NCBI GenBank assembly: GCA_965247085.1
Contig: OZ251999.1
Span: 4,608,859-4,672,858 of the forward strand
DNA: 64,000 bases
Reading direction: 5' to 3'
DNA from: Ferruginibacter sp.
GTDB taxonomy: Bacteria > Bacteroidota > Bacteroidia > Chitinophagales > Chitinophagaceae
Shown here: one piece after another, positions 5,844 to 27,780 of the stretch
How the letters are laid out: each line of letters starts with the position of its first letter
Position numbering within the stretch: position 1 is the first letter of the stretch
Position numbers and translations under genes: made by a program
Notes under the pieces: generated by a model
Seen by the model: the letters and a program-made list of their open reading frames with translations, nothing else
The model's database searches: none
What the model was told of the DNA's origin: nothing

Positions 5844-5845
5844 TT

Positions 5846-6755: not shown

Positions 6756-6759
6756 CAGC

Positions 6760-8199: not shown

Positions 8200-8205
8200 A
8201 CGGAC

Positions 8206-9132: not shown

Positions 9133-9229
9133 TTTATTACATACCCAAAATAATATATCTAAATATTCGTTTTACCTTTATGCCGCCCCAATTCAACAGA
9201 TTGGGGGGCCAACTTATTAAATACAGTAG

Positions 9230-10213: not shown

Positions 10214-10301
10214 CATATACCCAAAATTTCACTTTGTTTTGCCATAAAAATAATATGGCAGTAATTAAAACCCATACGCTTTTAGCATTTAATGTAAACC
10301 C

Positions 10302-11867
10302 ATGACCGCGATTCCACAACGTTTATTAGGAGAAGGATTACTGATTGCCGCAAAAAAAAATCCATCTAAAACTGCAGTGGTCATTAAGGATAAAACATTT
10401 TCTTATCATCAGCTGCAGGAAGGGGCACTAAAACTGGCGGCACATTTAATTCAGTCAGGCATACAAAAAGGAGACCGGGTTGCTATTTACATGAGCAATT
10501 CCTGGGAAAGTGTACTGGCGGTATACGGAGCTGCATTGTCAGGTGCCGTATTCCTGTTTATCAATCCGCAAACCAAGGCCAATAAGCTGCAATATATTTT
10601 AAATGACTGCGGTGCAAAAATACTGATTGCAGAAACTGCCTTAAGTAATGATATTACTGCCGCCCTGGAAGATGCCCCCACCATACAGCAACTGCTCATT
10701 GCAGGCAATGCTGATACAATTGTACTGCAGCCGGGTGTTCAGTTGGTTAGTTTTGAGTCGGTAATTTTAGCCGCCACCTGCAAGGTGAACTTTCCGGTTA
10801 TTATCCCTACCGATCTGGCATCATTAATTTATACATCGGGCAGCACCGGCTTTCCCAAAGGTGTGATGATGACTCACCAGTCGATGGTATTCACCTCCTG
10901 GAGCCTCATAGAATATTTAAGACTTACCGATGAAGAGCGCATCATGTTATTGTTGCCCCTGGCATTTGATTACGGTTTGTACCAGTTATTAATGACCATT
11001 ACGGTGGGCGGCACTTTAATTGTAGAAAAAGGATTTGTGTTTCCGGCTTCTGTATATAAGCAGATAATAATACAGCAACCAACGGTATTACCTGCAGTGC
11101 CCACTATTTTTGCAATGATGATAGCATCCAATAAAGAAACAGGATTGCAGTTTGACTTTGTAAAAAAAATAACCAATACCGCCGCGGCATTACCCGCCGA
11201 ATTCATACCCGATCTGAAAAAGATATTTCCCAATGCACTTATTTTTAAGATGTATGGTTTAACAGAATGTAAAAGGGTGTGCTATCTTGAACCTGAGTTG
11301 GTAGATATCAAGCCCAGCTCGGTAGGCAGGGCCATCCCGGGTACAGAAGTATTTTTGTTATCACCAGATGGTAAGCCTGTTGCAACCAATGAGCCGGGAA
11401 TTTTACACATCCGCGGGCCGCATGTTATGGCCGGCTACTGGAATAAGGAACAATTGACCAACGAAATGCTGAAACCCGGAAAAATTCCCGGCGAAAGAAT
11501 ATTGTGTTCCAACGACTGGTTTAAAATGGATGAAGATGGCTGCCTTTATTTCCAGGGAAGAAATGATGATATTATAAAAACCAGGGGTGAAAAAGTAAGC
11601 CCGGTAGAAATAGAGAATATTATTTATAAAATACCGGGCGTAAAAGAAGTGGCTGTAATTGGTGTAACGGATGCCATTATGGGCCAGTCCATAGCCGCAT
11701 TTATTACCTGCCACAACAATGTGCAGCTGAACGAAAAAGACATTCAAAAAGAATGCATGGCCCACCTGGAATCTTTTATGATTCCGCAAAAAGTAACTTT
11801 TTTGCAGGAGATGCCAAAAAGTTCGAACGGGAAAATTGATAAAAAAGAACTTGTAAAAAATAATTGA
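10302..11867 (+). CDS. AMP-forming acyl-CoA/acyl-carrier ligase
   Basis: YTSGSTGFPKGVMMTH, WFKMDEDG and C-terminal SSNGKIDKKEL. Confidence 0.85.
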   Translation: MTAIPQRLLGEGLLIAAKKNPSKTAVVIKDKTFSYHQLQEGALKLAAHLIQSGIQKGDRVAIYMSNSWESVLAVYGAALSGAVFLFINPQTKANKLQYILNDCGAKILIAETALSNDITAALEDAPTIQQLLIAGNADTIVLQPGVQLVSFESVILAATCKVNFPVIIPTDLASLIYTSGSTGFPKGVMMTHQSMVFTSWSLIEYLRLTDEERIMLLLPLAFDYGLYQLLMTITVGGTLIVEKGFVFPASVYKQIIIQQPTVLPAVPTIFAMMIASNKETGLQFDFVKKITNTAAALPAEFIPDLKKIFPNALIFKMYGLTECKRVCYLEPELVDIKPSSVGRAIPGTEVFLLSPDGKPVATNEPGILHIRGPHVMAGYWNKEQLTNEMLKPGKIPGERILCSNDWFKMDEDGCLYFQGRNDDIIKTRGEKVSPVEIENIIYKIPGVKEVAVIGVTDAIMGQSIAAFITCHNNVQLNEKDIQKECMAHLESFMIPQKVTFLQEMPKSSNGKIDKKELVKNN

Positions 11868-12289
11868 TGCAGCTTGCAAAACCAGACATATGCGCCCGAT
11901 TCAAAACCTGGTTAATAGCCTGGGATGAATATGATCTGGAGACTGTAATGGACTGGATGCATGAAGAAGTGGTATTTGAAAACTGGGATGGATTGACTGT
12001 GAACGGAAAAGCAGCCTTGCAAAAAATATGGACACCCTGGTTCATTTTTAACGGCAACTTCAAATTCATTAGTGAGGCAGAGGTAGTAGATGAAGCAGCG
12101 CAACAAATAGCTTTCCAATGGCGCTATGAAGGGCCGTCATTTGAAAAGGAGTATAAGGGAAAACAGGAGATCCGCCGCGGTACTGATATCATCAGTTTAC
12201 TGGAGGGGAAAATTGTAAGAAAAACCTCTTATTCTAAAACCTGCATTCAAATAGAAGCGCAGCCATTGATACTGGGAGTTAAAAAATGA
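11864..12289 (+). CDS. SnoaL/NTF2-like small protein (tentative)
   Basis: 141 aa with ATGA overlaps on both sides, so translationally coupled. Its size and W/F-rich alpha+beta pattern are compatible with the NTF2-like fold. No catalytic motif was recognised. Confidence 0.45.
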   Translation: MMQLAKPDICARFKTWLIAWDEYDLETVMDWMHEEVVFENWDGLTVNGKAALQKIWTPWFIFNGNFKFISEAEVVDEAAQQIAFQWRYEGPSFEKEYKGKQEIRRGTDIISLLEGKIVRKTSYSKTCIQIEAQPLILGVKK

Positions 12290-13215
12290 TTTATAAGACG
12301 TTACATTGCATGGAACAAAAAAAAATATACGAAGATCTTTTAGCATTGCTTAAAAAGGATTTGAGTATCCTGCCCGATAAGCAGGAAGAAAATGCTGAAA
12401 ATACATTGGCCGCTTTATGGCATACAGCAGCGGGTAACCGCGTTTCGCCCATTGCAGCAGAAAAATTACCATCATTGCCCGGGTTACAATCCGAACAGGT
12501 AGATCTGCTGCGGGAATTTATTCAAACCCGGCTTTCGGGTGTGCCGCTGGCGCACTTAACAGAACGGCAGGATTTTATGGGGCTGGATTACATATTGAAC
12601 AAAGGCTTGTACATTCCCCGTAAAGAAACGGAGTTGCTGGCTCAAACCGCTATTGATACCATTGCCAAAGATTTTGCTGCCGAAAAAGAAGCCATAGTGA
12701 TCGATCTGTGTACCGGAATTGGTACTGTGGCACTGGCCATTGCACATTATTGTACTAATACCAGGGTATTTGGTTCTGATATTTATACACCTGCCATAGA
12801 AGCCGCGGCAGTAAATGCACAGCATTTTGCACTGCAAAACAGGGCTGCCTTTTTTAATGCAGATATGTTTACCCCTTTTGAATCACTGTCATTAAAAGAT
12901 ACAGTAAGCGTAATAGTAAGTGCACCACCCTACATCTCGTCGGCAAAAGTTAAGAACATGGCGGATGAGATCGCTTCTCATGAACCGGAAGAAGCATTTG
13001 ACGCCGGTCCCTTCGGACTGTCTATTTTCACCATTCTGATTGCAACAGCACCCCAATACCTGTTGGTAAACGGGTACCTGATTTTTGAATGCGGATTAGG
13101 ACAGGGCGATTTTCTTGCCAAACGTATTGAAGCCAACCCTCAATATGGAAAAGTAGAAAAATTTTGTGATGCCCATGGCAATGTGAGAGTACTAAAAGCA
13201 AAACGAATTAATTAA
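12286..13215 (+). CDS. HemK/PrmC-like class I SAM methyltransferase with non-canonical SAPPY motif
   Basis: SAM motif I IDLCTGIGTVALA. Motif IV reads IVSAPPYI where HemK-type enzymes have NPPY. Confidence 0.65.
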   Translation: MIYKTLHCMEQKKIYEDLLALLKKDLSILPDKQEENAENTLAALWHTAAGNRVSPIAAEKLPSLPGLQSEQVDLLREFIQTRLSGVPLAHLTERQDFMGLDYILNKGLYIPRKETELLAQTAIDTIAKDFAAEKEAIVIDLCTGIGTVALAIAHYCTNTRVFGSDIYTPAIEAAAVNAQHFALQNRAAFFNADMFTPFESLSLKDTVSVIVSAPPYISSAKVKNMADEIASHEPEEAFDAGPFGLSIFTILIATAPQYLLVNGYLIFECGLGQGDFLAKRIEANPQYGKVEKFCDAHGNVRVLKAKRIN

Positions 13216-13271
13216 ACAGTTGTGCCATTGCACAGCAACACCAACATGATAAAATAATAATTGCAAATAAC

Positions 13272-13523
13272 ATGGAAAATTCAACGGCCACAAAAGAACA
13301 AATACGTCAGTTTATCATTGAAACCACTTTTGCACCTGCACCGGATGTACAGGATGATACCCTGATTTTTGTGCAGGGGTTCTTTGATTCGATGGGATTT
13401 TTATTGCTCATCAGTTTCATTGAAGAAAAATTTGGCGTTAAAACTGATGATTCAGAATTACTGGAAGAGAATTTTGAATCAATTAATGCCATTGCCAGTT
13501 TTATTGAACGCAAACAAAAATAG
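13272..13523 (+). CDS. Carrier protein (ACP3)
   Basis: 83 aa with GFFDSMGFLLLISFIEEKF (D-S-x attachment context), placed between the methyltransferase and the AsnB-like gene. Confidence 0.75.
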   Translation: MENSTATKEQIRQFIIETTFAPAPDVQDDTLIFVQGFFDSMGFLLLISFIEEKFGVKTDDSELLEENFESINAIASFIERKQK

Positions 13524-13532
13524 TTTTACAGC

Positions 13533-15509
13533 ATGTGTGGTATAGCCGGAATTTATAAGTATCGCCCGGATGATCAGCAGTCCAATGAGCACAGCGTTAA
13601 AAAAATGCTGTCGGCCATTCGTCACCGCGGTCCCGATGAAACAGGTATTTACAGGAATGACCATTTTTGTATGGGCAGCGTGCGCCTGAGCATTGTAGAT
13701 ATTGCCAGCGGGCAGCAACCTGTTTGTGATGATACCGGCAATTACTGGATTGTATACAACGGAGAGATCTTTAATTTTCCTGAGTTAAAAAAACTAATTG
13801 AAGAAAAGGGCATACAATTAAAAACCAATTGCGATACCGAAGTACTGGTGCAATTATACGCACTTTTTGGAGCCGCCTGCCTTTCCTATTTAAATGGGCA
13901 GTTTGCGTTTTGTATCTGGGATAAAACAAAACAGGAAATGTTCCTTGCCCGCGACAGGGTAGGCATCAGGCCCCTGTTTTACTGGGCCCGGCAGGGTGCT
14001 TTTGCATTTTGCTCCGAAATAAAAGGCTTGTTTACACTGGATAAGATTGAGAAAAAGATCAGTGCCGAAAGCCTGGCGCAGGTATTTACTTTTTGGACAA
14101 CCCTTACACCCAATACCCCTTTCGAAAATATTTACGAACTGTCTCCGGGCCATTGTATGACAGTTAAAAGCACCGGTATTACCATTACAAAATACTGGAG
14201 TCTTCAGTTTCAGGATACAAGATATCCCAATACACAACATTTTGATACAGCCCTGGAAGGGTTGACTGCATTACTGCAGGATGCCACCAGTATCCGGCTG
14301 AGGGCGGATGTGCCTGTAGCTGCATATTTAAGCGGCGGTCTCGACTCCAGTGTAACTACCAGTATCATTAACAGCATCAACCCCGGCAACCTGCAAACTT
14401 TTTCCATTGGGTTTAAGGATAAAGAATTTGACGAAACCAAATACCAGCAGGAAGCGGCAGCATATTTTAATACACAGCATACGGCATTTGAATGTACCGC
14501 GGCAGAAATAGCCGAACAGTTTGCCACCACTATCTGGCATACCGAGTTCCCAATTTTACGAACCTCGCCAACACCGATGTACCTGCTTTCTAAAAAAGTA
14601 AGGGAGCATAATATTAAAGTGGTGGTTACCGGCGAAGGAGCAGATGAGGTACTGGCCGGTTATAATATTTTTAAGGAAGCCAAGATCAGGCGTTTTTGGG
14701 CCAATCAGCCTGACTCTGCCGTAAGGCCAAAACTGTTGTCTAAACTGTATCCCTACATCCCCATGATACAGGGCTCTAATAACCTCGCGTTAAAAATGTT
14801 TTTTGGTTTTAAGCTAAATGAAACCAGTGATCCGCTGTATTCTCATTTGTTGCGCTGGCACAATACCTCCCGTATCAAAACATATTTTTCCGATGATATA
14901 ACACGGGCATTAGATCAGTACCAGCCTGTAGAACAGGTATACGGTCAACTACCCGAAAATTTTAAAAACTGGAGTGGGCTTGCGCAGTCGCAATACCTGG
15001 AATCTTCCATCTTTATGTCGGGTTATCTGCTTTCTTCGCAGGGCGACCGCATGGCCATGGCCAACTCTGTGGAAGGACGCTATCCTTTTTTAGATTACCG
15101 GGTAATAGAATTTTGTGCCGGACTGCCCGACAGTTTTAAGCTTAATTGCCTGGATGAAAAATTCATACTCAAAAAACTGAGTCGCGGACGGATACCGGAA
15201 TCAATTACTAAAAGACCCAAGCAGGCTTACCGGGCTCCCATTGCCAGCAGTTTTTTTCATGCAGGTGCGCCAGCCTATATTGAGGAAATATTATCAGAAG
15301 AAAAATTACAAGCCTTTGGTTTATTCAACCCGCAAAAAGTAAAAACGCTGATAGCGAAAATGAAGAACCAGCAAAACATTTCAGAAATGGATCAAATGGC
15401 CATTGCAGCAATATTATCTACCCAGTTACTGCAGCAAATGTTTATTACCAACCCGGTGGCTACCAATGTAGAAGAACTGGCCAATTTAAAAGTAGTTATA
15501 GAAAATTAA
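13533..15509 (+). CDS. Asparagine synthetase B-family glutamine amidotransferase
   Basis: N-terminal nucleophile MCGIAGIY, PP-loop YLSGGLDSSV, 658 aa. Confidence 0.9.
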   Translation: MCGIAGIYKYRPDDQQSNEHSVKKMLSAIRHRGPDETGIYRNDHFCMGSVRLSIVDIASGQQPVCDDTGNYWIVYNGEIFNFPELKKLIEEKGIQLKTNCDTEVLVQLYALFGAACLSYLNGQFAFCIWDKTKQEMFLARDRVGIRPLFYWARQGAFAFCSEIKGLFTLDKIEKKISAESLAQVFTFWTTLTPNTPFENIYELSPGHCMTVKSTGITITKYWSLQFQDTRYPNTQHFDTALEGLTALLQDATSIRLRADVPVAAYLSGGLDSSVTTSIINSINPGNLQTFSIGFKDKEFDETKYQQEAAAYFNTQHTAFECTAAEIAEQFATTIWHTEFPILRTSPTPMYLLSKKVREHNIKVVVTGEGADEVLAGYNIFKEAKIRRFWANQPDSAVRPKLLSKLYPYIPMIQGSNNLALKMFFGFKLNETSDPLYSHLLRWHNTSRIKTYFSDDITRALDQYQPVEQVYGQLPENFKNWSGLAQSQYLESSIFMSGYLLSSQGDRMAMANSVEGRYPFLDYRVIEFCAGLPDSFKLNCLDEKFILKKLSRGRIPESITKRPKQAYRAPIASSFFHAGAPAYIEEILSEEKLQAFGLFNPQKVKTLIAKMKNQQNISEMDQMAIAAILSTQLLQQMFITNPVATNVEELANLKVVIEN

Positions 15510-15674: not shown

Positions 15675-18600
15675 CTAGTTTACTTTAATTGCTTTTAAAG
15701 TAAGTTTTTCCTGGTTGCTGAAGAATGCAGTTACCAGATATGTGCCCTTAGGCAAATTACTCATGTCTATTTTTTCTTTTGTGGTGTAGGTGCCGGTAGC
15801 AATTTTTTTATTGTAAATAACCTTCCCCATCATATCCGTTACCGAAACCAATACGGTGGTGTTGGCCGTGGTGGAAAGAATATCCAGGTTAGCAATGTCG
15901 GCGATAGGGTTAGGATATACTTTAATACTATTACCAGAAGGGGCAGTTACTACTGTTACCGTTACCATAGTGGTGTCCTTTCCGGTGGCACCTTTATCGT
16001 CAGTAACTGTTAATTCAAAAGTGTAAGATCCTGCAATCAGATTATCTAAAAAGGTTACAGCTGTATTGGGTGAAGTGAGCTTATCGGCAGGGCCGGAAAT
16101 TTGCCTCCATTTATATGAAACAACTATTCCATCAACATCAGTGCCGCTTCCGTTTAGGGTAACACTATTGGCAGGCGAAATAACAAATTGATCAGGTCCT
16201 GCATTGGCAACCGGAGGTATATTTTCAGGGTTCACTGTTACCTGAATCACTGCTGTTGCTGAAGCACCATTATTGTCAGTAACTCTTAATTCAAATTGAT
16301 AAATACCTTCTGTTAATCCCGTAACTGTAGTACTGGCAATAGTAGCATTGCTGATGATACCTGTTGCAGGGCCCGAAATTTTTGTCCATCTGTAAGAGGC
16401 AATAAATCCATCTACATCATTACCACTGCCGTTTAAATTAGCAACATTGGTGGGCAGTGTAATTGACTGGCTTAAACCCGCATTGGCTACAGGGGGTATA
16501 TTGGGGGCAAATACAATCACCTGCATTACATCAATGGCGATGGCGCCACTGTTATCAGTAACTTTTAATTCAAATTGGTAGATACCTGCAACCAGTCCGG
16601 TAACAGCCGTGCTTGCAGAAGCGGCATTGGTGATGGTACCTGCAGCTGGCCCCGAAATTTTAGTCCACAGATAAGCATTGATGGTGCCATCAGGATCGGT
16701 ACCCGATCCTGCAAGATTTACAGAACTGGTGGGTAAGGTGATCGATTGATCTGCACCTGCATTGGCAGTGGGTAACACATTGGGAGCAGGATTTACAATT
16801 ACCTGCATTACATCGGTAGCGGTAGCGCCACTGTTATCGGTAACTCTTAATTGAAATTGGTAGATACCTGCAATCATCCCGGTAACGGCCGTACTTGCAG
16901 AAGCTGCATTGGTAATGGTGCCAGCAGCTGGCCCCGAAATTTTAGTCCACAAATAAGCATTGATGGTGCCATCAGGGTCGGTACCCGATCCGGTAAGGTT
17001 TACAGAACTGGTGGGTAAGGTGATCGATTGATCTGCACCTGCATTGGCAACAGGTGCAATATTTGCAGCAGGATTTACAATTACCTGCATTACATCAATG
17101 GCAGTAACGCCACTGTTATCGGTAACTCTTAATTGAAATTGGTAGATACCTGCAATCATCCCGGTAACAGCCGTACTTGCAGAAGCGGCATTGGTAATGG
17201 TGCCTGCAGCGGGGCCCGAAATTTTAGTCCACAGATAAGCATTGATGGTGCCATCAGGGTCAGTACCCGATCCGGTAAGATTTACAGAACTGGTGGGTAA
17301 GGTAATAGACTGGTCGGCACCTGCATTTGCAACAGGTGCAATATTTGCAGCAGGATTTACAATTACCTGCATTACATCAATGGCAGTAGCGCCACTGTTA
17401 TCGGTAACTCTTAATTCAAACAGGTAGATACCGGCTGCCAGCCCGGTAACCGATGTACTTGCAGAAGCAGCATTGGTAATGGTGCCAGCGGTGGGCCCGG
17501 AAATTTTAGTCCACAGGTAGGCGTTGATAGTACCATCAGGATCAGTACCCGATCCGGTAAGATTTACTGAGTTGGTGGGTAAGGTAATAACTTGATCAAT
17601 ACCTGCATTTGCAGTGGGGGCAATATTAACAGCTCCGGGGTTAACAATTACCTGCATTGTATCTTTTCCTGCTGCGCCATTATTATCGGTAACTCTTAAT
17701 TCAAACAGGTAGGTGCCAACTGCTAAACCAGTAACTGCAGTATTGGCTAAAGCAGCATTGGTAATAATGCCTGCAGCGGGCCCGGAAATCTTGGTCCACA
17801 GGTAGGCGTTGATAGTGCCATCAGGATCAGTACCCGATCCGGTAAGATTTACTGAGTTGGTGGGTAATGTAATAGACTGATCAATACCTGCATTGGCTGT
17901 AGGCGCAATATTACTGTTAGCGCCACTGTACTCTGCATATCCCATATCTGGTGCATTACCAGTGAAGGTTAATCCTACATCAATACCTGCATCAATTAAA
18001 GGCGAACCAGCAGACAAGGTATAGTTTGCTGCATATGCAGGGGTAAGTTTTAAGTTATTTAAAAAAGTATAACGTGTTGGAGCGGGAGCAGGGCTTTCAA
18101 ACAAAGGATTGTTGCTGTTACCATTACCATAAATATTGTTGTTGCTGATATTCAGCGAATCAATTGCCACACTGCCGCCCTGCTGTACAATGGGGGCGCT
18201 CATGGCATTGGCAATGATATTGTTCTTAATGCGAATATTCTTTAAAGTACCCGATGTGGTATTGGGAAGTTTGATGCCCCAAAACGTAGGATGTGCAGGA
18301 TCTTCCAGCAGGGTATTATTGTAAATATCGATGTTGTTCCAGCTGATATTTGAAGCACCATAATTACCCATGTTGATAAGGAAGCCGGTGGCTTCGGCCA
18401 TGCCCACATTCGTGATCAGGTTTTTTCTGATGACTACATTGGTTACATTATTGCCATTCCGGGGTGTAAACAGGATGCCCAGGTTTACTTTATCAATGGT
18501 ATTGTTTTCAATGATCACTCCATCGGTTTCAAATTCCAGGGTAATACCGGTTTGAATATTATTATTCAATGAGGGCATAATAATATTGTTATCATGAATC

Positions 18601-19490
18601 CAGGCGGCAAAAGCATAACTGCCCTTGGTATTGTGGTTGATGTCTATTGAACCGCCGTTTAAGTTGTTATTATAAATTTCCAGTCCGCTTTCATTAAACA
18701 ATTCAATGGCAAAATCCCAGTTATTGGCACCCAGGGGATAACTGTTCAATATTTTATTCAGTGTATTGTTATAGATTTTGCAACCATTTAAATAACCATC
18801 ATTCTGGTATTTGATGGGCCAGCCATTATGCCCTGCGGGGCGGCTGTTTTGTGTAATGGTATTGTTATAGATCAGCATGCCTGTTTGCCCGCCAATGCAC
18901 AATGCACCGGCACCGTATCCCAGTATCTGGTCGTAATCGGCACAGTTGTCAATGATGTTATTGTAAAAAGTATTGCCGGTGGCAAAGATGGCTGGTGGGC
19001 CCAGTTGGTTATCATTGCGGCCACCAAAAATAACACCCCTGTTTTTAAAATTCACCATGGTAATATCATGCACACTTACATTGCTTCTGCCTGCAATATA
19101 AATACCCCAAAAGGTAGTGAGGTTCTGTCCGTCGAATTTTACATTGGAGATATGCTGGTTGCCATTGGTGCCTTCGGCAGATTTGAGCGACAGCATTTCT
19201 GTCCAGTCGGCAGACAGGGTACTTCTGAGTACAGAACTAACACCATCGCCTTCAATACTAACGCCTACTTTAAGACTGCACTGAAGTGTTTCTGTATAGG
19301 TACCTGCATTTACATGAATGATATCACCGGCAGCTGAAACAGTGCTGGTTGCTTTGTACAAAGTTTTCCAGGGATTGGTGATTGCACCTGTACCTGTAGC
19401 GTCGTTGCCTGTTGGACTGATATAATACGTGGTGGAGTTTGCTGTGGAAGTAAACAGGAACAGCCCCAAAATGAATAAAAATGATTTCAT
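15675..19490 (-). CDS. Secreted right-handed beta-helix protein with 7 PKD-like repeats and T9SS C-terminal sorting domain
   Basis: Signal peptide MKSFLFILGLFLFTSTANS. The N-terminal YYISPTGNDATGTG...IHVNAGTY and many N-x-I/NN repeats are typical of pectate-lyase-fold proteins. It has seven ~93-aa units containing GSGTDPDGTINAYLWTKISGP. The C-terminal KVYPNPIADIANLDI...LTLKAIKVN is a T9SS CTD-like tail. Confidence 0.85.
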   Translation of the reverse strand: MKSFLFILGLFLFTSTANSTTYYISPTGNDATGTGAITNPWKTLYKATSTVSAAGDIIHVNAGTYTETLQCSLKVGVSIEGDGVSSVLRSTLSADWTEMLSLKSAEGTNGNQHISNVKFDGQNLTTFWGIYIAGRSNVSVHDITMVNFKNRGVIFGGRNDNQLGPPAIFATGNTFYNNIIDNCADYDQILGYGAGALCIGGQTGMLIYNNTITQNSRPAGHNGWPIKYQNDGYLNGCKIYNNTLNKILNSYPLGANNWDFAIELFNESGLEIYNNNLNGGSIDINHNTKGSYAFAAWIHDNNIIMPSLNNNIQTGITLEFETDGVIIENNTIDKVNLGILFTPRNGNNVTNVVIRKNLITNVGMAEATGFLINMGNYGASNISWNNIDIYNNTLLEDPAHPTFWGIKLPNTTSGTLKNIRIKNNIIANAMSAPIVQQGGSVAIDSLNISNNNIYGNGNSNNPLFESPAPAPTRYTFLNNLKLTPAYAANYTLSAGSPLIDAGIDVGLTFTGNAPDMGYAEYSGANSNIAPTANAGIDQSITLPTNSVNLTGSGTDPDGTINAYLWTKISGPAAGIITNAALANTAVTGLAVGTYLFELRVTDNNGAAGKDTMQVIVNPGAVNIAPTANAGIDQVITLPTNSVNLTGSGTDPDGTINAYLWTKISGPTAGTITNAASASTSVTGLAAGIYLFELRVTDNSGATAIDVMQVIVNPAANIAPVANAGADQSITLPTSSVNLTGSGTDPDGTINAYLWTKISGPAAGTITNAASASTAVTGMIAGIYQFQLRVTDNSGVTAIDVMQVIVNPAANIAPVANAGADQSITLPTSSVNLTGSGTDPDGTINAYLWTKISGPAAGTITNAASASTAVTGMIAGIYQFQLRVTDNSGATATDVMQVIVNPAPNVLPTANAGADQSITLPTSSVNLAGSGTDPDGTINAYLWTKISGPAAGTITNAASASTAVTGLVAGIYQFELKVTDNSGAIAIDVMQVIVFAPNIPPVANAGLSQSITLPTNVANLNGSGNDVDGFIASYRWTKISGPATGIISNATIASTTVTGLTEGIYQFELRVTDNNGASATAVIQVTVNPENIPPVANAGPDQFVISPANSVTLNGSGTDVDGIVVSYKWRQISGPADKLTSPNTAVTFLDNLIAGSYTFELTVTDDKGATGKDTTMVTVTVVTAPSGNSIKVYPNPIADIANLDILSTTANTTVLVSVTDMMGKVIYNKKIATGTYTTKEKIDMSNLPKGTYLVTAFFSNQEKLTLKAIKVN
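15951..17912 (-). repeat. Seven in-frame tandem repeats (273-285 bp units) encoding PKD/Ig-like domains
   Basis: Unit boundaries were read from recurring NI(A/P)P(T/V)ANAG codons at 17912, 17627, 17345, 17063, 16781, 16502 and 16223. The anchor attgatggtgccatcagg recurs with a 282-bp period. Units 3 and 4 differ at 2 aa and a few nt. Confidence 0.9.
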
Positions 19491-19894
19491 AAGGATGTTA
19501 AGATTTATTGGATTTTATTGGAACACAAGCACTCTTGTGTAACGGCATACATAATTTTATATTGTTTAACAAAAGTATGTTTGGATATGTGTACTGTTTT
19601 GTATGCAATGGAGGATAAAATTTATTATACAAATACAGTGCTTTTTTTATTTATATTACTCGTTGTTTATAAAATGTGAATATAATTTTAAAGGTTAGCA
19701 AAAAATATAATGAATAATGATTTTAAACAGGCTTCTTAATATAACAAAAACATCCATGTATACAGCCCTTACAATTACCGGCAAACGGCCTGCTGGTCGA
19801 ACAAGGACAAGGATCTAAATTTTTCTTTTAGATGTTCAAGGATGTATTTCGCGTTATGTAATCAAAAACTTGGCCAAATTTGCCAGATTGGATT

Positions 19895-20515
19895 TTATTT
19901 TTTTCTGGGCTGCCTTCTTTTTTTCCATTTTTTTAATCCAATGATGCTAAGTAGCAGTAAAAGAATACAGTACATACTAAGCACCAGGTAGTGCTCTGTA
20001 AAATAAATTGGAATGGCAGCTGCGGTGGCTGCAATGTACCAATACCAGGCTTCAACTTTTTTGGTGGCCAGTAACCAGGTAGCCGTAAAAGCGCTTGCCA
20101 AAACAAAGGCATCGGCCCAGGGTATACGGCCTGCTGCAAAATAAGATCTGAGGTACTGAAGCGTTATACCAAGCAGCAGGTAGCAGGTGCCAAAAAAGGC
20201 AAGCTGCAACAGTTGGCTTTGTTGCGATGAGGCGGTAACACGTATGATGCGGTGCTTTTTCCGGTCCCTTTTTTTCCATTGCAGCCAGCCATAGATACAA
20301 ACGGTAAGATAACAGAGGTCAATCATGATTTCTCCGGGCAATTCTTTATCCAGGCCCAGAAATATATGGATGGCAATGCAGATCCATGCAATAGGATAAA
20401 CATAAATATTTTCTTTATAGCTCAGAAAAAAACAGGCGATCACTGCAAGCAGCAATATGGGCTCAATCAGGTCGTACCCTTTCAATTCGTAATACAGGGG
20501 CCTGATGATATTCAT
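19895..20515 (-). other. PnuC-like (nicotinamide riboside transporter family) 7-TM segment with its own in-frame ATG
   Basis: MNIIRPLYYE... starts at 20515. There are seven hydrophobic segments, with CIYGWLQWKKR, PWADAF..SAFTATWLLATKKVEAWYWYI and a basic KKWKKRRQPRKK tail. This pattern resembles the PnuC family. Confidence 0.65.
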
Positions 20516-21958
20516 CTTGATATTGGTGAGCGAAAAAACCGTACCGCCGAAAGAGGTATTATGCCTGGCAATAAAATGCTGAGGTCCGCCATTGGTAAAA
20601 GAAGGATTGTTATTATTGCCATTTGCTGTAAGTACATTACTGTCACTGATCAGGGTGTCTATTACAGCTCCCGGGTTGGCAAACAGGTACCCGGCGCTGA
20701 AATTGGCAAACGTATTTTTTTGCACCAGTATATTATTGATCTTTAATGCTCCCAGCAGGCCAATTCCCCAATAGGGCCTGGCTGTGGTACTGGCAATGAA
20801 TTGATTTTGCAGTACCAGCAGGTTTTCTATTGAATATTTGTTATCCCCGTCTCTGCCCACCCGTAATGCAAAGCCCTGGTGGCTGCCATCAGACAGGCCA
20901 ATGTTTTCGCAGCGGTTATTTTTTATGGTTACGTTGCGGATCAGGTCGTAAGTTCTGGGAGTGAAGTTTACGATCACGCCCAGGTTTTTCAGCGTATTAT
21001 TTTCTATGCGTACATCGTTGGTCTCAAATTCCAGTACGATACCGTTTTCCAGGTTTTCCTGCCTGCTGGCGGGGCCAATAATATTATCATGTATGTAAAC
21101 ACTGTAGGCATAAGAATCCTTATTCTGATGATTCAGGTCAATAGAACCAATGATGGTGTTGTTGTAAATTTCCAGTCCAAACTCGTTAAACAGCTCAATG
21201 GCAAAGTCCCAGCTCATGCCATCAAAGGCTTCTTTGGTAATGGTATTGTTATAGATCTTGCAACCTCTTAAAAAACCACCATTGTAATACTTTACCGGCC
21301 ATCCATTGGTGCCTTTGGCCCTGCCTGTTTGAGAAATGGTGTTATTATATATCAGCATGCCTTCCTGCCCGCCAATATTCAGGCAGCCACGTCCATAGGT
21401 TTCGTATTTTGCACAGTTGGTAATGGTATTATTGTAACAGCTGTTGCCGGTGGCGTATATGCCCGGTGCCCCGTCTTCATTATCACTTCTGCCTGCCCAA
21501 ACAATACCCCTGTCTTCAAAATCAGTGATCACACAATCATGAATGCTGAAATTGTTGCGGCCCCTTATTTCAATGGCCCATGAAGTGCTTCGGTTATTGC
21601 CGTCTAATTTGATATTACTGATATGCTGATCACCGTTTGTGCCTTCGGGGGATATGGCAACAATAATGGCCGCAAACTCCTGCGTTAATGCCGCACGGAT
21701 AACCGATGCCGGGCCCTCTCCTTCAATACTGACACCCGCGGCAAGCACGGTTCTGCCCACTTCGGTATAGTTACCCGCCATAACATGAATAATATCTCCT
21801 TTTGCAGTTGCTACGGAACTGGCTTTAAGAAGAGACCGCCAGGGATTACTGCTGCTGCCGCTGCCGCTTTCATCACTTCCGGCGGGGCTGATAAAATAAG
21901 TAGTGGCAAAACTGGTATGAAATGATAAAAAAAGTATAAGGGTAAAAAATAGCTTCAT
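19895..21958 (-). CDS. Beta-helix protein (paralog of 15675..19490 N-terminal domain) fused in frame to a PnuC-like 7-TM module
   Basis: The likely start is MKLFFTLILFLSFHTSFATTYFISPAGSDESG at 21958; the ORF track start at 22039 adds 27 unlikely residues. The helix domain is colinear with the 1271-aa paralog up to NNNPSF. It then reads directly into a 206-aa C-terminal membrane domain. Confidence 0.7.
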   Translation of the reverse strand: MKLFFTLILFLSFHTSFATTYFISPAGSDESGSGSSSNPWRSLLKASSVATAKGDIIHVMAGNYTEVGRTVLAAGVSIEGEGPASVIRAALTQEFAAIIVAISPEGTNGDQHISNIKLDGNNRSTSWAIEIRGRNNFSIHDCVITDFEDRGIVWAGRSDNEDGAPGIYATGNSCYNNTITNCAKYETYGRGCLNIGGQEGMLIYNNTISQTGRAKGTNGWPVKYYNGGFLRGCKIYNNTITKEAFDGMSWDFAIELFNEFGLEIYNNTIIGSIDLNHQNKDSYAYSVYIHDNIIGPASRQENLENGIVLEFETNDVRIENNTLKNLGVIVNFTPRTYDLIRNVTIKNNRCENIGLSDGSHQGFALRVGRDGDNKYSIENLLVLQNQFIASTTARPYWGIGLLGALKINNILVQKNTFANFSAGYLFANPGAVIDTLISDSNVLTANGNNNNPSFTNGGPQHFIARHNTSFGGTVFSLTNIKMNIIRPLYYELKGYDLIEPILLLAVIACFFLSYKENIYVYPIAWICIAIHIFLGLDKELPGEIMIDLCYLTVCIYGWLQWKKRDRKKHRIIRVTASSQQSQLLQLAFFGTCYLLLGITLQYLRSYFAAGRIPWADAFVLASAFTATWLLATKKVEAWYWYIAATAAAIPIYFTEHYLVLSMYCILLLLLSIIGLKKWKKRRQPRKK

Positions 21959-22091
21959 GATAAATTTTTCAGCGCCTGTTTTAGGGTAATAACAAAATAC
22001 CCAACGAAGATACTGAATCCTGAAAAAGACAGGCAGCAATTTGAAGCGAATAATTACAAGTGCTGCAGTAGTTGAAGGTGCATTACAAGTT

Positions 22092-22595
22092 CTACCGGCC
22101 TATCATTTCAAGGTTACTCTTTTCAATAAGTGTAACCAATTGCAACCCCATGCTTTCTATTCTTACAGAAGCTCTTTTTCCAACGATGCGTATTAATATG
22201 CCCTGGTAATCCATTAATATGCCCTCTTTTACTTTTACCCGCGCATTTACTTCCAGGGTGCCTTCTACTACCTGCACCGTTTTAAACTCTTTTAAAAACT
22301 TACGGATGGTATCAATTTCACTTTCTTTAATTACAGCCGGCTTACCTAACCAGGTTACATATTTCAATATACCCGGAACCTTTAAAAGCTCCCATTTTTT
22401 ACTGGCTGCAATTTTTACAAATACGTACGATTTAAACAGGGGTTCCAGCACTGTTTTCTTCCTGTCGCTCCATTGCTTTACCACCTTGTTTAAAGGGCAG
22501 TAGTATTCAACTCCCTGGGCTTCCAGTAAGCTGGCTACCTTTTTTTCCCAGCGTGGTTTGGTGTACACGGCATGCCAATGAGGATCTTGTTTCAT
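22092..22595 (-). CDS. UpxY-family (NusG-like) transcription antiterminator
   Basis: The N-terminal NGN-like region is HWHAVYTKPRWEKKVASLLEAQGVEYYCPL and the C-terminal KOW-like region is VKVKEGILMDYQGILIRIVGKRASV. The likely start is MKQDPHW at 22595, not the 22631 ATG. Confidence 0.8.
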   Translation of the reverse strand: MKQDPHWHAVYTKPRWEKKVASLLEAQGVEYYCPLNKVVKQWSDRKKTVLEPLFKSYVFVKIAASKKWELLKVPGILKYVTWLGKPAVIKESEIDTIRKFLKEFKTVQVVEGTLEVNARVKVKEGILMDYQGILIRIVGKRASVRIESMGLQLVTLIEKSNLEMIGR

Positions 22596-22986
22596 TTGTG
22601 TTGATGCTTTGGGGGTTTTTAATTTCAGCATACTGAAATTAAAAAATTATTGCATGCAAAGATAACAGAAATTATACATGATGATTTTATAATATTGTGA
22701 TATCGGGGCTTTGCAAAAGCAGGATAAAACAAAATCTATTTGCTGGTACTAATGCAGGCAAAAAGAAAAGGCTATCATTACGATAGCCCTTTGTGCTGAA
22801 ACCAGAAAACCACCCAAAATTTGTATAAAAAATAAATTCAGTAATTGTAAAAAAAGAGCACGGATTAATTTGTTGTTCAAATATCATTTCCAGGCATACT
22901 TAGTAACGTATACACTACTGGATCTGCAATACAAAGTGAAGGAATGCAGCTGTAATTTAGCAGCGTAGATGTTGGGTATTTTAAAA

Positions 22987-23010
22987 TCAGGTATTTCTAC
23001 CTGACTTTTT
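22987..23010 (-). terminator. Weak hairpin terminator directly after response-regulator stop
   Basis: TCAGGTA-tttc-TACCTGA, a 7-bp stem flanked by A/T runs, abuts the stop codon at 23009..23011. Confidence 0.35.
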
Positions 23011-23677
23011 ACAGGCCAATATGAAAGAGCCCGTTCTTAATGGCAAAAATTACCAGGCCTGCCGTGTTGCGGCAGCCGGCTTTGGCCAGCAGGTTATTCC
23101 GGTGGCCTTCTACGGTGCGGGGGCTGATAAACAACTGTTCGCCAATTTCGGTATTGGTAAATTCCCTGCACAGCAATACCAGTATTTCTTTTTCCCTGCC
23201 GGTAAGTTCTATGGCAATATTGCTCAGGTTTTTAATATCGCCCTGTTTGAACTGCGATGCTTTTCGCATGGCCTGCAGGCTGGCCTGGTTAAAATAAAAA
23301 CCCGTTTTATAAGTGGCACTGATGGCAGTGGTCAGTTCTTCAATTTCGCAGTTTTTAGACAGGTAACCGCAGGCGCCTGCTTCAATCATTTTTGCAATAA
23401 AGCGCTCCTGGTCGTATACCGACAGTATCAGTACTTTTATTGAAGGATATTGTTTTTGTAAAATCCCGTTCAGCTCCACTCCATTCATTTCGGGCATGTG
23501 CATGTCTATAAGCGCAATATCCGGCAGGGCAGTGCCGGTTTGCAGCTGTTCAATAAACTGCTTCCCGTTTTCAGCTTCCTGCAGCAGGGTAAAGCCCGGT
23601 ACCGAACGGATCAGCGAGGCCAGTCCGCTGCGGAACAAGTGTTGATCATCTGCCAGTGAAATCAAAATATCGCTCAT
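23009..23677 (-). CDS. NarL/FixJ-family response regulator (REC + LuxR-type HTH), cassette A
   Basis: The REC domain has DDQ...IALIDMHMPEMNG. The C-terminal HTH is LTGREKEILVLLCREFTNTEIGEQLFISPRTVEGHRNNLLAK. Confidence 0.9.
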   Translation of the reverse strand: MSDILISLADDQHLFRSGLASLIRSVPGFTLLQEAENGKQFIEQLQTGTALPDIALIDMHMPEMNGVELNGILQKQYPSIKVLILSVYDQERFIAKMIEAGACGYLSKNCEIEELTTAISATYKTGFYFNQASLQAMRKASQFKQGDIKNLSNIAIELTGREKEILVLLCREFTNTEIGEQLFISPRTVEGHRNNLLAKAGCRNTAGLVIFAIKNGLFHIGL

Positions 23678-23684
23678 GTAACTA

Positions 23685-24458
23685 TTACTTTTTAGCCGCT
23701 TCCGGCAATATGATCTTAATATAAAATCCCTTGCCCGCTGCGGCAGTTATTTCAAATACACCCTGTATCATTCTTAAACGGGCTTCAATATTCTGCATCC
23801 CCATCCCCGATCTTTTAATTGCATCAGCAGGCATACCAATACCATCATCCTGGTAGCTCATTGTGGTGCAGCCGGCTTCCTTAAAAAATTGCAGGGTAAC
23901 GTTTTTGGCCTGTGCGTGCTTAACGGTATTATTCAGCAGTTCCTGTATGATCCTGAACAAAGCCAGGCTGGTCTTTTTATCCAGTGCATCCAGTGCAGGG
24001 CCCAGGTGGTTTTTAAAATGTAATTGCAGTGTACCCGGGACGGTAAAGGTATCAAATAATTCCTGCAGGGTAAATTCTAACCCAAACAGGTCCAGCCCCG
24101 GCGGCGATAAACTGTGAGAAATAGTGCGTACCGTGTTAATGATATTATCAATAAGGGGTTTGTGTGCAGCATTGGCAGCTTCGCTTTGTGCCATTATCAT
24201 TTTAAGGTTAGAGAGGGAAGCGCCTACATCATCGTGCAGGTCGCGGCCAATTCTTTCCCGTTCCTCTTCCTGCAACTGCAGGGTGGCATGCAGCAGCTGT
24301 TCGCCATAATCCAGTTCGGCTTTTTGCAGGGCTTCTTTTTGTTTGGCAATATTACGCTGGTATCTTAAAAAGAAGAAAATGAAAGCTGCGGCCAGTATAA
24401 AGGTGCCCACCATGGCAAACAATACCAGTAAAAAAATATTATCGGTTACTTTTTGCAT
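23685..24458 (-). CDS. HisKA_3-type histidine kinase with single N-terminal TM and no extracytoplasmic domain, cassette A
   Basis: H-box ERERIGRDLHDDVG and HATPase motifs LNNTVKHA and QDDGIGM. The likely start is MQKVTDNIFLL at 24458; the ORF track start at 24521 overlaps the upstream gene more deeply. Confidence 0.85.
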   Translation of the reverse strand: MQKVTDNIFLLVLFAMVGTFILAAAFIFFFLRYQRNIAKQKEALQKAELDYGEQLLHATLQLQEEERERIGRDLHDDVGASLSNLKMIMAQSEAANAAHKPLIDNIINTVRTISHSLSPPGLDLFGLEFTLQELFDTFTVPGTLQLHFKNHLGPALDALDKKTSLALFRIIQELLNNTVKHAQAKNVTLQFFKEAGCTTMSYQDDGIGMPADAIKRSGMGMQNIEARLRMIQGVFEITAAAGKGFYIKIILPEAAKK

Positions 24459-25087
24459 AACAGAAAGGCTAAAGCGAAAAACAAATACATGCACAAAACC
24501 AGCGCAGCATAAATTACCCATACAATATAATACTCGCGGCTGGAGGCATTGATGATAAAATTAGAAAATACAAATAACATGAACGAACCCGAAAAATAAA
24601 TAAAGATGCCGGAGTTAAAATAAAACTCCGGCAGCAGAAATGTTTTTTTGCCATCGGCAACGGTTGCCAGCCTGGCAAAATAATTGAGTGCAAACAGCAT
24701 ACAAATGATGGCTTCTACCGAACGGGTATAACTGCTGTAGGTGTACACACTCTGAAAGAACAGCGCATTGATGACGCATAGAATAATAAAAGCGGGTACC
24801 AGTATACGGTACAGCAGGCGATTACCGGGCGTATGTAATACTTGTTTGTAAAACCAGCAAAAGAACAGCAGTTCTACAGGTGTATAAATATGTATCAGGG
24901 GTAAATTATTTACATGCATTACCCTGCCGATAATATAGGCCAACAGGCTTACAATGCCTGAAACCAGCAGGTAGTACCAGATGATGGCAGCGCTGCGTGG
25001 TAATACCTTCAGTTTTACTAAGCCAATAATAACAGGCAATAAAACACTGTACGGTACAAATACCGACATAAAGAATTTACTATCCAT
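24446..25087 (-). CDS. 7-TM membrane protein, candidate sensor partner, cassette A
   Basis: 213 aa with seven hydrophobic segments by eye. It overlaps the kinase start by about 13 nt. Its architecture, length and position match 27139..27780. Confidence 0.7.
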   Translation of the reverse strand: MDSKFFMSVFVPYSVLLPVIIGLVKLKVLPRSAAIIWYYLLVSGIVSLLAYIIGRVMHVNNLPLIHIYTPVELLFFCWFYKQVLHTPGNRLLYRILVPAFIILCVINALFFQSVYTYSSYTRSVEAIICMLFALNYFARLATVADGKKTFLLPEFYFNSGIFIYFSGSFMLFVFSNFIINASSREYYIVWVIYAALVLCMYLFFALAFLLCKK

Positions 25088-25720: not shown

Positions 25721-26368
25721 TTAAACAGTTACGATGCTGTTTTTAATGGCATACATTACCAGGCCCACCCTTGTTTTTACATTCAGTTTTTCAAACAGTG
25801 CATCGCGGTAACCGTCGATGGTGCGGGGGCTTACAAACATTTTATCGGCAATTTCTTTATAGGTCATTTCGGTGCAGGCATATTTTAAAAAATCGGTTTC
25901 CCTTTCATTTAGTTGTACCAGGCTTTTAAGGCTGCTGCCGCTATCTTCTAATTTATTAATGGCATGCATCAGTTTACCACTTACCAGGTCGCTGTAATAA
26001 AATCCTTTACTCATTACATCTTCAATGGCGGCTTTCAGTTCGGCCGGTTCACTGTCTTTTAAAATATATCCTTTGGCGCCGCATTTAAGCATGCGGATGA
26101 TGGAGGTTTCGTTATCGTACATACTCAGCGCCAGCACTTTTACATCGGGATGGTTTTCCTTTAGCCACTGGGTGGTTTCGTAGCCATCCATTTCGGGCAT
26201 ATTGATGTCCATCAATACCATTTCGGGCAAATTATCCGGGTTGAGCCGGCTGATGAATTCTTTACCATTACTGGCTTCAAAAAAAACGGTGTGCCCCAGT
26301 TTGTTTACCAGTTCGGCAAGGCCATTGCGCAGTAATGCATGATCGTCTGTTAATGCTATTGTTGCCAT
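25721..26368 (-). CDS. NarL/FixJ-family response regulator, cassette B
   Basis: REC domain (DDHALLRNG...VLMDINMPEMDG) plus a LuxR HTH (ERETDFLKYACTEMTYKEIADKMFVSPRTIDGYRDALFEK). Confidence 0.9.
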   Translation of the reverse strand: MATIALTDDHALLRNGLAELVNKLGHTVFFEASNGKEFISRLNPDNLPEMVLMDINMPEMDGYETTQWLKENHPDVKVLALSMYDNETSIIRMLKCGAKGYILKDSEPAELKAAIEDVMSKGFYYSDLVSGKLMHAINKLEDSGSSLKSLVQLNERETDFLKYACTEMTYKEIADKMFVSPRTIDGYRDALFEKLNVKTRVGLVMYAIKNSIVTV

Positions 26369-26390
26369 AGTAAAATGAATCAGTTATTTG

Positions 26391-27146
26391 TTAATTGGTG
26401 GGCACCTCAATGGTTACAAGGGTGCCTTTACCTTCGGTTGACTGTAAATTAAATGTTCCGCCTATTAATTGTGCCCGGTTGAGCATACTTTTTAAACCAA
26501 TGCCTATTTTTTGAGTGGCATCAAAGCCACTGCCGTTATCCACAATCTGCAGAATAAATAGTTGTGGCAGGTATTGCAGTTGCACAGTAAGCTTTTGGGC
26601 TCTTGAATATTTAATACAATTATTGAGTGCTTCCTGCACAATGCGGAAGAGGATCATTTCTTTTTTGGGATCTAGTTTAAAAAGCGTGCCGGTAATTTGT
26701 AATTCTGTTTCAAATGCCCTGGTGCTTTCAATTATTTTTAGTTCGTTGGCAATACTTTCCTGTAAACCCAGTTCGGCAATAATATCGCCGTGCAGGCTGT
26801 GGCTGAGGTTGCGCAGATCGTTAATGGCCTTGCTTACCAAATTTTTAGTATCCTGTATTTTGGGTTCAGTGCTGTTGGGCAACGTATTCAGGTTAAGTTT
26901 GGCAAGGCTTAGTACCTGGCCAATATTATCGTGTATCTCTTCGCTGATGGTTTTTAAAGTTTGCTCCTGAATTTCGAGTTGGGTTTGAAGGAGCTCCTGC
27001 TGGAACTGGGTTTGCATTGACTGTTTTTCAAGCTTATTTTTTTGTTGTTTTCGGGAATATAATGTGGCAAGTAATAGAATAAAAACGCCCAAAAGTAAAA
27101 AGGCAATAACAAAACTGAAAAAGTAGTATTTAATATTCTCAGGCAT
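26391..27146 (-). CDS. HisKA_3-type histidine kinase with single TM, cassette B
   Basis: N-terminal TM YYFFSFVIAFLLLGVFILLLATL, H-box ISEEIHDNIGQ, and HATPase motifs LNNCIKYS and VDNGSGF. Confidence 0.85.
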   Translation of the reverse strand: MPENIKYYFFSFVIAFLLLGVFILLLATLYSRKQQKNKLEKQSMQTQFQQELLQTQLEIQEQTLKTISEEIHDNIGQVLSLAKLNLNTLPNSTEPKIQDTKNLVSKAINDLRNLSHSLHGDIIAELGLQESIANELKIIESTRAFETELQITGTLFKLDPKKEMILFRIVQEALNNCIKYSRAQKLTVQLQYLPQLFILQIVDNGSGFDATQKIGIGLKSMLNRAQLIGGTFNLQSTEGKGTLVTIEVPTN

Positions 27147-27780
27147 TATTCCACTTGTATTTTTTATAGATAACTATTGATAAAATATAGGATAAATAAA
27201 GTAGTAAGAGCAGGCTGTGATTAATTGCTCCAAATAATAAATCTGCTTTATCCCATTTGTTAGCATTGATAATAGGATAGAGAACAAAATAAGTAAAATC
27301 CCCAAGATTGAATAAAAACAAACCAGATGAAAGGAGGAAAAAGTAATTTTTCAATAATGATTCTTCGGTACTTTTTTGAAACTGCTCATATATATAAATA
27401 CAGAAGCAAATTATTACACAACTTTGTCCTGAAAGTAAAGCATAACTATGAAGTATTTTAAAAGGCTGATATATAAAACAAAGTAGGCTGGTAAGCAATA
27501 ATATAATTGATGAAATTTTAGAGAACAATTTCAGGGGTTTATTACCATGAAGCCAGAAAAGGAAAAAATAAAAAGAATACTCGGCAGGGATTGTAAAATT
27601 ATATAATGTAGAGTTTGCATACGGCACTTTATGAAAATAATTGCCAATTAATTCAATGATTAAAATAAATAGAAGAAAAAAAGGCAGCCAGCGATAGCTG
27701 CCTTTTTTTATGTATTTCCAGTAAATTATACTTGTTGAGAATGCAAGAAATTCTACAACATGGTTTTGTGTAATAGTCAT
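27139..27780 (-). CDS. 7-TM membrane protein, candidate sensor partner, cassette B
   Basis: 213 aa with seven hydrophobic segments and an 8-nt overlap with the kinase start. Confidence 0.7.
   Translation of the reverse strand: MTITQNHVVEFLAFSTSIIYWKYIKKGSYRWLPFFLLFILIIELIGNYFHKVPYANSTLYNFTIPAEYSFYFFLFWLHGNKPLKLFSKISSIILLLTSLLCFIYQPFKILHSYALLSGQSCVIICFCIYIYEQFQKSTEESLLKNYFFLLSSGLFLFNLGDFTYFVLYPIINANKWDKADLLFGAINHSLLLLLYLSYILSIVIYKKYKWNNA

Follow-up and report, generated by a model that had tools for sequence, protein, structure and literature searches.

Pnu transporters are regarded as small stand-alone facilitators that need a cytoplasmic kinase to trap vitamins. Here we analyse a 64,000-nt stretch of Ferruginibacter sp. 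contig OZ251999.1 (positions 4,608,859-4,672,858, forward strand; the whole stretch is hereafter the window) whose minus strand carries a gene joining a Pnu-family module in frame to a large right-handed beta-helix domain. The gene lies between those for a UpxY-family antiterminator and for a beta-helix paralog with a type IX secretion system (T9SS) sorting domain, both on the same strand. Databases name proteins of this kind 'nicotinamide riboside transporter PnuC' and ignore their N-terminal two thirds. An initial annotation of the window had recognized the fusion and knew of no characterised PnuC with a large extracytoplasmic domain. Our literature searches found none described, and nothing relevant on a PnuC/beta-helix fusion, on PnuC in Ferruginibacter, or on PnuC together with exopolysaccharide.

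The fusion gene and its modelled product

The reading frame is unbroken over 19895..22039 on the minus strand and has two candidate starts in the open reading frame (ORF) list and the minus-strand sequence, TTG at 22039 and ATG at 21958. A Met-Lys/Arg signal peptide matching 21958 begins every one of the 38 aligned homologues, and we therefore place the start there and not at the upstream TTG. The complete coding sequence, stop codon included and matched by full-length homologues, is thus 19895..21958 and specifies a 687-aa protein whose N-terminus reads MKLFFTLILFLSFHTSFA followed by TTYF. Residues 1-18 (MKLFFTLILFLSFHTSFA; 21905..21958, minus strand) form a predicted Sec-type signal peptide with cleavage after A18, which is invariant in 39 sequences; the signal peptide has no lipobox Cys.

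An AlphaFold2 model built on 39 family sequences (mean predicted local distance difference test score, pLDDT, 91.4; predicted template modelling score, pTM, 0.86) consists of a signal helix (residues 2-13), a beta-helix (20-470), a further helix (477-493) and seven transmembrane (TM) helices (498-682). The helix at the junction, LTNIKMNIIRPLYYELK (aa 477-493; 20480..20530, minus strand), is conserved and leads from the beta-helix to TM1, and the protein ends in a predicted cytoplasmic basic tail, QPRKK, whose codons and the stop occupy 19895..19912 (minus strand). Lys and Arg residues of the Pnu module are clustered in the TM3-TM4 loop (KKRDRKKHRIIR) and the C-terminal tail (KKWKKRRQPRKK), both predicted to be cytoplasmic, and this distribution behind a cleaved signal peptide fits an N-out/C-in Pnu bundle. 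The pTM of the two-domain model suggests a fixed arrangement of the two parts. The product as modelled is a single protein of the inner membrane, in which a beta-helix on the periplasmic side is rigidly connected to a bundle of the Pnu fold.

The initial annotation is upheld on most of this architecture. The ORF does run without a stop into the Pnu segment at the point where its paralog enters a cap and PKD repeats, and the translation and model contain the seven hydrophobic helices and the PnuC-like motifs CIYGWLQWKK and ATWLLATKKVEAWYWYI. The N-out/C-in topology with a cytoplasmic basic tail likewise holds in the model and the charge distribution. The beta-helix had been called secreted; it is rather predicted to be periplasmic and membrane-tethered.

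Distribution and age of the fusion

The full-length architecture occurs in more than 120 protein clusters (685-742 aa, 42-61% identity, 96-100% query coverage) that carry PF04973 and often also PF13229. A genome scan located it in ~36 species-representative genomes, all of them labelled Ferruginibacter, Chitinophagaceae, Chitinophagales or 'Sphingobacteriales'. The frame is uninterrupted in 35 of 36, and none of the ~36 genomes has a stop at the beta-helix/Pnu junction. The sole interrupted copy, from a long-read metagenome-assembled genome (MAG; L051, 10001-12063), has a frameshift at ~aa 359, inside the beta-helix, which is either an indel error or the mark of a pseudogene. Orthologues are also present in Ferruginibacter strain SUN106 and in F. 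profundus. MAG names suggest sludge, lakes and soil as the origins of the fusion-bearing genomes.

Conservation extends to the junction, with a motif RPxYYExK whose P487 shows no variation and whose Y489 and K493 have a conservation of at least 90%. An independent 1.85-kb contig from a near-identical strain (P0001) matches aa 248-687 at 98.4% identity with no gaps, spanning the junction; this contig and the lack of junction stops in relatives rule out an assembly error or other artefact. Between the two explanations offered earlier, a genuine tethered chimera and a young deletion that fused two genes, the first is borne out by the clusters, genomes, junction and contig just described, and the second is rejected by the sharing of the architecture, at full length, among relatives of 42-61% identity. 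Judged from the aligned sequences and their distribution, the fusion arose long ago and is specific to one lineage, Ferruginibacter with its relatives in the Chitinophagaceae/Chitinophagales.

An internal ATG at 20515 had also been noted, as a possible independent pnuC start. The codon is present and in frame – 20515 is the first base of the minus-strand Met482 codon, inside the junction helix – but it is not conserved as a start, residue 482 being Met in 47 of 120 fusion members and Gln or Glu in 71. Because Met482 is kept in only those 47, independent initiation of the Pnu module is not a feature of the family. A single Bacteroidetes -7-like match at 20707-20714, ~190 nt upstream of 20515, overlaps codons for the segment NTFANF, whose residues N415 and F420 do not vary. 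A second candidate, TATCTTTG, is a Bacteroidetes-type -7 box found by pattern search upstream of the UpxY gene (22657..22664, minus strand). The pattern is not enriched in the window, and both sites are weak leads by position only. A scan of 19400-22900 for sigma-70 promoters and terminators gave results at or below shuffled expectation. The 133-nt gap between the UpxY gene and the fusion holds no terminator-like site and no -7 box, which fits co-transcription of the two genes.

The Pnu module

The seven-TM module (aa 498-682; 19913..20467, minus strand) is placed in the Pnu family by profile, structure comparison and model. PF04973 (NMN_transporter) matches aa 498-680 over profile positions 3-175 of 175 with an E-value of 1.7e-31 and 110 bits (cut-off 27.3), and TIGR01528 (PnuC) gives 48.1 bits (cut-off 42.45), confirming the earlier assignment of the C-terminal segment to this family. 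A profile of the fusion family reached the PnuC structure 4QTN in the PDB at E 1.5e-7, and phmmer with the single sequence reached no PnuC structure. The seven modelled helices have a pLDDT around 90, and Foldseek aligned the membrane part with 4QTN over 214 columns at a target-normalised TM-score of 0.62 and 19% identity. When the module alone was compared with 1.84 billion representatives, few fusion representatives or fragments were recovered (13 at E<1e-30), and the next matches were ordinary Pnu proteins of ~200 aa at 22-38% identity. The nearest standalone relatives are Chitinophagaceae PnuCs such as P0126 from Flaviaesturariibacter.

In an alignment of 120 fusion modules and 99 standalone Pnu representatives, the fusions keep nearly all residues that are at least 60% conserved in the standalone proteins, including E499, P522, Y556, G557, W558, W561, D616, K633, E636, W638, G674 and W678. 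W561 and W678 are the gate tryptophans, situated where TM3 and TM7 end on the cytoplasmic side; they are invariant in the fusions and present in 98-99% of standalone proteins.

Pnu proteins have a conserved seven-TM core in which WxxW(x)3D/N is the ligand-binding motif of TM6; its D/N contacts the ligand in PnuC, and the D166A substitution in PnuT abolishes thiamine binding (PMC5749112). The corresponding signature of the window protein is WYWYIAAT (20024..20047, minus strand), against a fusion-family consensus of WYWWIATN. It reads W638-Y-W-Y641-I-A-A-T645, with the first W kept, the second replaced by Y, and D/N replaced by T. Across the fusions W occupies position 641 in 104/120 and N occupies position 645 in 59/120, the other residues at 645 being S, A, F, T, C, I and V; the final motif position is D/N in 95 of the 99 standalone proteins (96%). 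Counted by species genome, Asn is found at 645 in 10 of 32, and the position has changed at least 17 times on a neighbour-joining tree. Loss of the TM6 Asn was not seen to go with either type of locus, the one that has cpsB or the one that lacks it. Mean pairwise identity among fusions is 49% for the Pnu module versus 57% for the enzyme domain, and the module is the less similar part in 82% of pairs. Because the Pnu core residues are kept whereas the TM6 D/N is labile, the alignment indicates that the transport scaffold is under selection and the canonical ligand site is not.

The beta-helix domain

The right-handed parallel beta-helix (aa 19-470; 20549..21904, minus strand) is predicted to be periplasmic. 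Scanned alone, the N-terminal part matches PF13229 (Beta_helix) at E 4.8e-9 and 36.5 bits (cut-off 25.9), and most of the modelled domain has a pLDDT above 90. BLASTP pairs aa 14-459 of the fusion with aa 15-469 of the neighbouring 1271-aa protein at 47% identity over 459 aa (E 3e-129); together with the PF13229 match, this substantiates the earlier observation that the signal peptide and beta-helix are colinear with the first ~470 aa of that neighbour. An NCBIfam search returned no model for the domain, and phmmer with the full fusion protein returned nothing from PDB sequences and thus no sequence-level match to a characterised family.

Its relatives by structure are glycan-active. Foldseek with the whole two-domain model gave 88 PDB matches at E<=0.001, and apart from two 4QTN chains the top 50 are beta-helix glycanases or lyases; the relatives include the Sf6 and HK620 tailspike endoglycosidases, the RbmB lyase and members of GH87, GH136, PL6, GH91 and GH28, at sequence identities of 10-14%. 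About 80 beta-helix positions are conserved in at least 26 of 28 homologues, among which are secreted paralogs as well as proteins from other phyla, and are retained in the fusion; they include the invariant polar residues E255, E263, D274, H290, N292 and E310 and others. The acidic/His set E255, E263, D274, H290 and E310 does not vary in any of the 28. Retention of this polar set fits an active beta-helix enzyme.

In the same genomes the beta-helix is part of an expanded family with three types of paralog of the fusion, one of beta-helix alone (~520 aa), one that adds a T9SS tail (~730 aa), and one with both PKD repeats and such a tail (1200-2100 aa). MAGs of Bacteriovoracaceae, Polyangiaceae and Patescibacteria supply more distant relatives. 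At seven loci (L058, L064, L068, L071, L076, L078 and L079) beta-helix relatives at 38-49% identity lack a Pnu module; the MAGs concerned are labelled Bacteriovoracaceae, Polyangiaceae, Myxococcales or Patescibacteria. Either horizontal transfer of the enzyme family or contamination during binning may account for the relatives in other phyla.

Genomic context

The UpxY-family, NusG-like antiterminator gene (22092..22631, minus strand; PF02357) is the first gene of a putative operon, 133 nt upstream of the fusion, and its product scores 135.5 bits against NF033644, antiterm_UpxY (cut-off 100). UpxY proteins head capsular polysaccharide operons in Bacteroides (PMC11685472). We found no inverted repeat of the invertible-promoter type upstream of this gene, only a 13-nt palindrome; it is a perfect inverted repeat, TTTTTAATTTCAG / CTGAAATTAAAAA, across the UpxY start codon (22616-22645).

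Downstream of the fusion lies the gene for the 1271-aa paralog (15675..19490, minus strand), which has a signal peptide, a beta-helix, seven K319L-like PKD domains and a T9SS sorting domain (Por_Secre_tail) by Pfam and NCBIfam. Within this ORF, five tandem 282-bp units of 87% identity encode PKD domains (16512-17912, minus strand). The range of paralog lengths across genomes, ~1200-2100 aa, suggests repeat expansion and contraction.

The context was compared by clustering ORFs from 37 fusion loci, with Pfam annotation for some of them. The fusion is preceded on its own strand by a NusG-like/UpxY-type gene in 28/37 loci, a gene for a CpsB/CapC PHP phosphatase lies ahead of it in 28/37 (it is absent from the window, L035 and L036), and a beta-helix paralog follows on the same strand in 33/37. 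The conserved order is UpxY, CpsB/CapC, fusion, often a convergent GMC pair, the beta-helix/PKD/T9SS paralog, and PIG-L-like proteins. The GMC pair, found between fusion and PKD paralog in 28/37 loci (L001-L043) and absent from the window, runs convergent to them and encodes a GMC-family oxidoreductase (~516 aa) and a smaller protein (~130 aa) that begins with a hydrophobic segment, possibly signal-like; together they may form a sugar dehydrogenase of the periplasm linked to the same pathway.

The operon in the window appears to hold only the UpxY gene, the fusion and the beta-helix/PKD paralog. L027, L035 and L036 repeat this layout, with convergent AsnB, acyl carrier protein, methyltransferase and AMP-binding genes. 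In the window a glycan- or lipid-modifying gene cluster (110-15509, plus strand) converges on the operon and encodes an FkbH-like protein, two MBOAT proteins, two AMP-binding proteins, an NAD-synthase-like PP-loop protein, a methyltransferase and a glutamine-dependent asparagine synthase; each MBOAT gene is followed by one for a ~310-320-aa protein with no Pfam match. At L003 an MBOAT gene homologous to those of the window stands between cpsB and the fusion, and other loci have GT2 and PMT_2-like genes nearby, on the opposite strand. No UpxZ, flippase, polymerase or export gene was recognized beside the fusion in the window operon or the annotated loci.

No gene for NadR/AAA_28 or another function of nicotinamide adenine dinucleotide (NAD) salvage was found among the Pfam-annotated neighbours, and no conserved kinase-like cluster among the 37 loci; the sole NAD-named neighbour is the NAD-synthase-like gene of the convergent cluster. 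There is no sign of vitamin-responsive regulation, because Rfam detects no riboswitch and no other RNA family anywhere in the window. Two neighbouring minus-strand cassettes (23009-25087 and 25721-27780) lie immediately upstream of the UpxY gene; each has a HisKA_3 sensor kinase with a LuxR-type response regulator and a membrane protein of 213 aa. No homology was detectable between the two membrane proteins (E 0.06). The cassettes could be regulators of the glycan locus.

Proposed function and alternatives

We favour, with moderate confidence, a role for the beta-helix in processing, within the periplasm, surface polysaccharide of the same cell; the Pnu module would both anchor the beta-helix and pass a small enzyme-related molecule, and would not be a dedicated vitamin B3 importer. 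The fusion would be transcribed behind the UpxY-type antiterminator, usually with the CpsB/CapC PHP phosphatase, and paired with the T9SS paralog. Cleavage of the signal peptide would leave a ~450-aa beta-helix in the periplasm, joined by the short conserved helix to the N-out/C-in Pnu bundle. We infer that the beta-helix is a glycan-cleaving or glycan-processing enzyme, by analogy with depolymerases such as RbmB, which acts on the polysaccharide of its own cell, and the secreted T9SS paralog would act on the same polymer outside the cell. The Pnu module would be a facilitator derived from standalone Chitinophagaceae PnuC that has lost strict nicotinamide riboside specificity, and would move its small molecule across the inner membrane while holding the enzyme in place. 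The earlier identification as PnuC therefore stands for family, by sequence and by fold, but probably not for substrate: the D/N is lost here and no trapping kinase is seen nearby, and strict nicotinamide riboside transport is for these reasons improbable.

Several observations weigh against this proposal. The canonical Asn and a TM6 motif identical to that of standalone PnuC persist in about half of the family, and nicotinamide riboside transport is possible for those members. The structural matches of the beta-helix are generic, at 10-14% identity, with no CAZy family or catalytic residues assignable, and the domain could instead serve in binding, epimerization or scaffolding. The fusion has no complete polysaccharide pathway beside it, UpxZ, flippase, polymerase and export genes not being identified, and CpsB is absent from the window's own locus. 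Finally, the faster evolution of the Pnu module relative to the enzyme domain also fits a mere anchor.

A bolder version, which we put forward tentatively, is that the fusion combines enzyme and channel in one polypeptide, a facilitator of the Pnu/SWEET fold having been taken over for carbohydrate metabolism. In its import form, a small product of the protein's own periplasmic glycanase would be taken in. In the reverse form, a cytoplasmic precursor would diffuse out to the periplasmic domain and be consumed there, and the frequently adjacent CpsB-like PHP phosphatase would replace the usual trapping kinase. In either form the protein, if this holds, would be the first of the Pnu family to have a substrate other than a vitamin and a catalytic partner outside the cytoplasm.

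It is unlikely, in our judgement, that the Pnu module is transport-dead and serves only as a polytopic membrane anchor or docking platform for a periplasmic enzyme. The lability of the binding residue at 645, the lower conservation of the module relative to the enzyme domain and the lack of a nearby trapping enzyme would all be expected of such an anchor. However, residues peculiar to the Pnu transport architecture – among them the TM3/TM7 gate tryptophans, K633, E636, W638, D616 and G557 – are 88-100% conserved across more than 100 diverged sequences, one TM helix would suffice for anchoring, and the nearest paralogs use a T9SS C-terminal domain or no anchor.

The database name implies a nicotinamide riboside (vitamin B3) importer whose beta-helix merely aids capture or release of a vitamin precursor, which we consider improbable. 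The curated cut-offs of PF04973 and the TIGR01528 'equivalog' are passed, orthologues go by PnuC or NMN transporter at NCBI and JGI, the family retains gate and scaffold residues, and about half of the family has a TM6 of WYWWIATN, identical to that of the nearest standalone PnuC, P0126. Yet in the window protein Y641 and T645 stand in place of the second W and of a D/N found in 96% of standalone proteins, no NadR/AAA_28 kinase is seen near any fusion although the standalone Chitinophagaceae pnuC adjoins one, the neighbouring genes are polysaccharide-related and not for NAD salvage, and we know of no beta-helix enzyme that generates nicotinamide riboside. In addition, mutating the TM6 D/N abolishes binding in PnuT (PMC5749112).

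That an artefact or a recent accident, be it assembly error, frameshift or young deletion, produced the single ORF and that a separate PnuC is made from the ATG at 20515 is scarcely credible: the in-frame ATG and the -7-like match ~190 nt upstream (20707-20714) are outweighed by the unbroken junction in more than 120 clusters and ~36 genomes at 42-61% identity, by the agreement of contig P0001, by Gln or Glu at residue 482 in 71/120 members, and by the overlap of that match, in a pattern not enriched in the window, with the conserved NTFANF codons.

Both domains of the fusion come from known families. We found no description of their combination, its context or its motif drift, which together suggest that the Pnu fold has been put to a new use, joined here to a large periplasmic beta-helix in a glycan locus with no kinase and a drifting binding site. 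Two thirds of the protein go unseen in its automatic annotation as PnuC, and its role is probably mislabelled, a point of importance for metabolic reconstruction in Ferruginibacter and its Chitinophagaceae relatives. Together, the fused enzyme and its secreted counterpart lend themselves to the study of how bacteria of this kind process their own polysaccharides.

Comparison with known systems

The closest relatives of the membrane part are the standalone Chitinophagaceae PnuCs (for example P0126 from Flaviaesturariibacter and P0355 from Lacibacter), with up to 38% identity to the window module. Their TM1 and TM6 motifs, such as LEFIAV..SVWFS.KENI.VYP.GLINT and ESWYWWIATN, are almost the same as in the fusion consensus, but the proteins are ~210 aa long and, unlike the fusion, have no periplasmic domain. 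In two genomes the standalone pnuC is directly followed by an AAA_28 (NadR-type kinase) gene, whereas none was seen near the fusions. In both (L080, 5001-6198; L081, 5001-6199) the genes further downstream encode Transgly, LysE and GH3 proteins.

Vitamin facilitators of the Pnu family, such as Neisseria mucosa PnuC (4QTN) and Shewanella woodyi PnuT, resemble the fusion in their seven-TM, N-out/C-in bundle, and their gate tryptophans and the K-K-x-E-x-W region of TM6 are conserved in it. Unlike them, the fusion carries a ~450-aa beta-helix, predicted to be periplasmic, behind a signal peptide, and the TM6 D/N is lost in the window protein and in about half of the fusion family. It also differs in its setting, a UpxY-led glycan locus with no adjacent trapping kinase seen and no riboswitch.

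For the N-terminal part, the right-handed parallel beta-helix is shared with Vibrio cholerae RbmB and the Sf6 and HK620 tailspikes, RbmB giving the best target-normalised TM-scores among the beta-helix matches (0.53-0.59). RbmB is a lyase that cleaves the organism's own Vibrio polysaccharide (VPS) and disrupts its own biofilm (PMC11637428, PMC12993940). These proteins are only 10-14% identical to the fusion, with no shared catalytic residues assignable, and none has a transporter fused to it. Much closer is the T9SS paralog, which is 47% identical over the whole beta-helix and has the same conserved polar residues. The two proteins part after ~aa 470, where the paralogs continue into the beta-helix cap, PKD repeats and a sorting domain that would take them out of the cell or to its surface, and the fusion continues into the junction helix and Pnu module that would hold it in the inner membrane.

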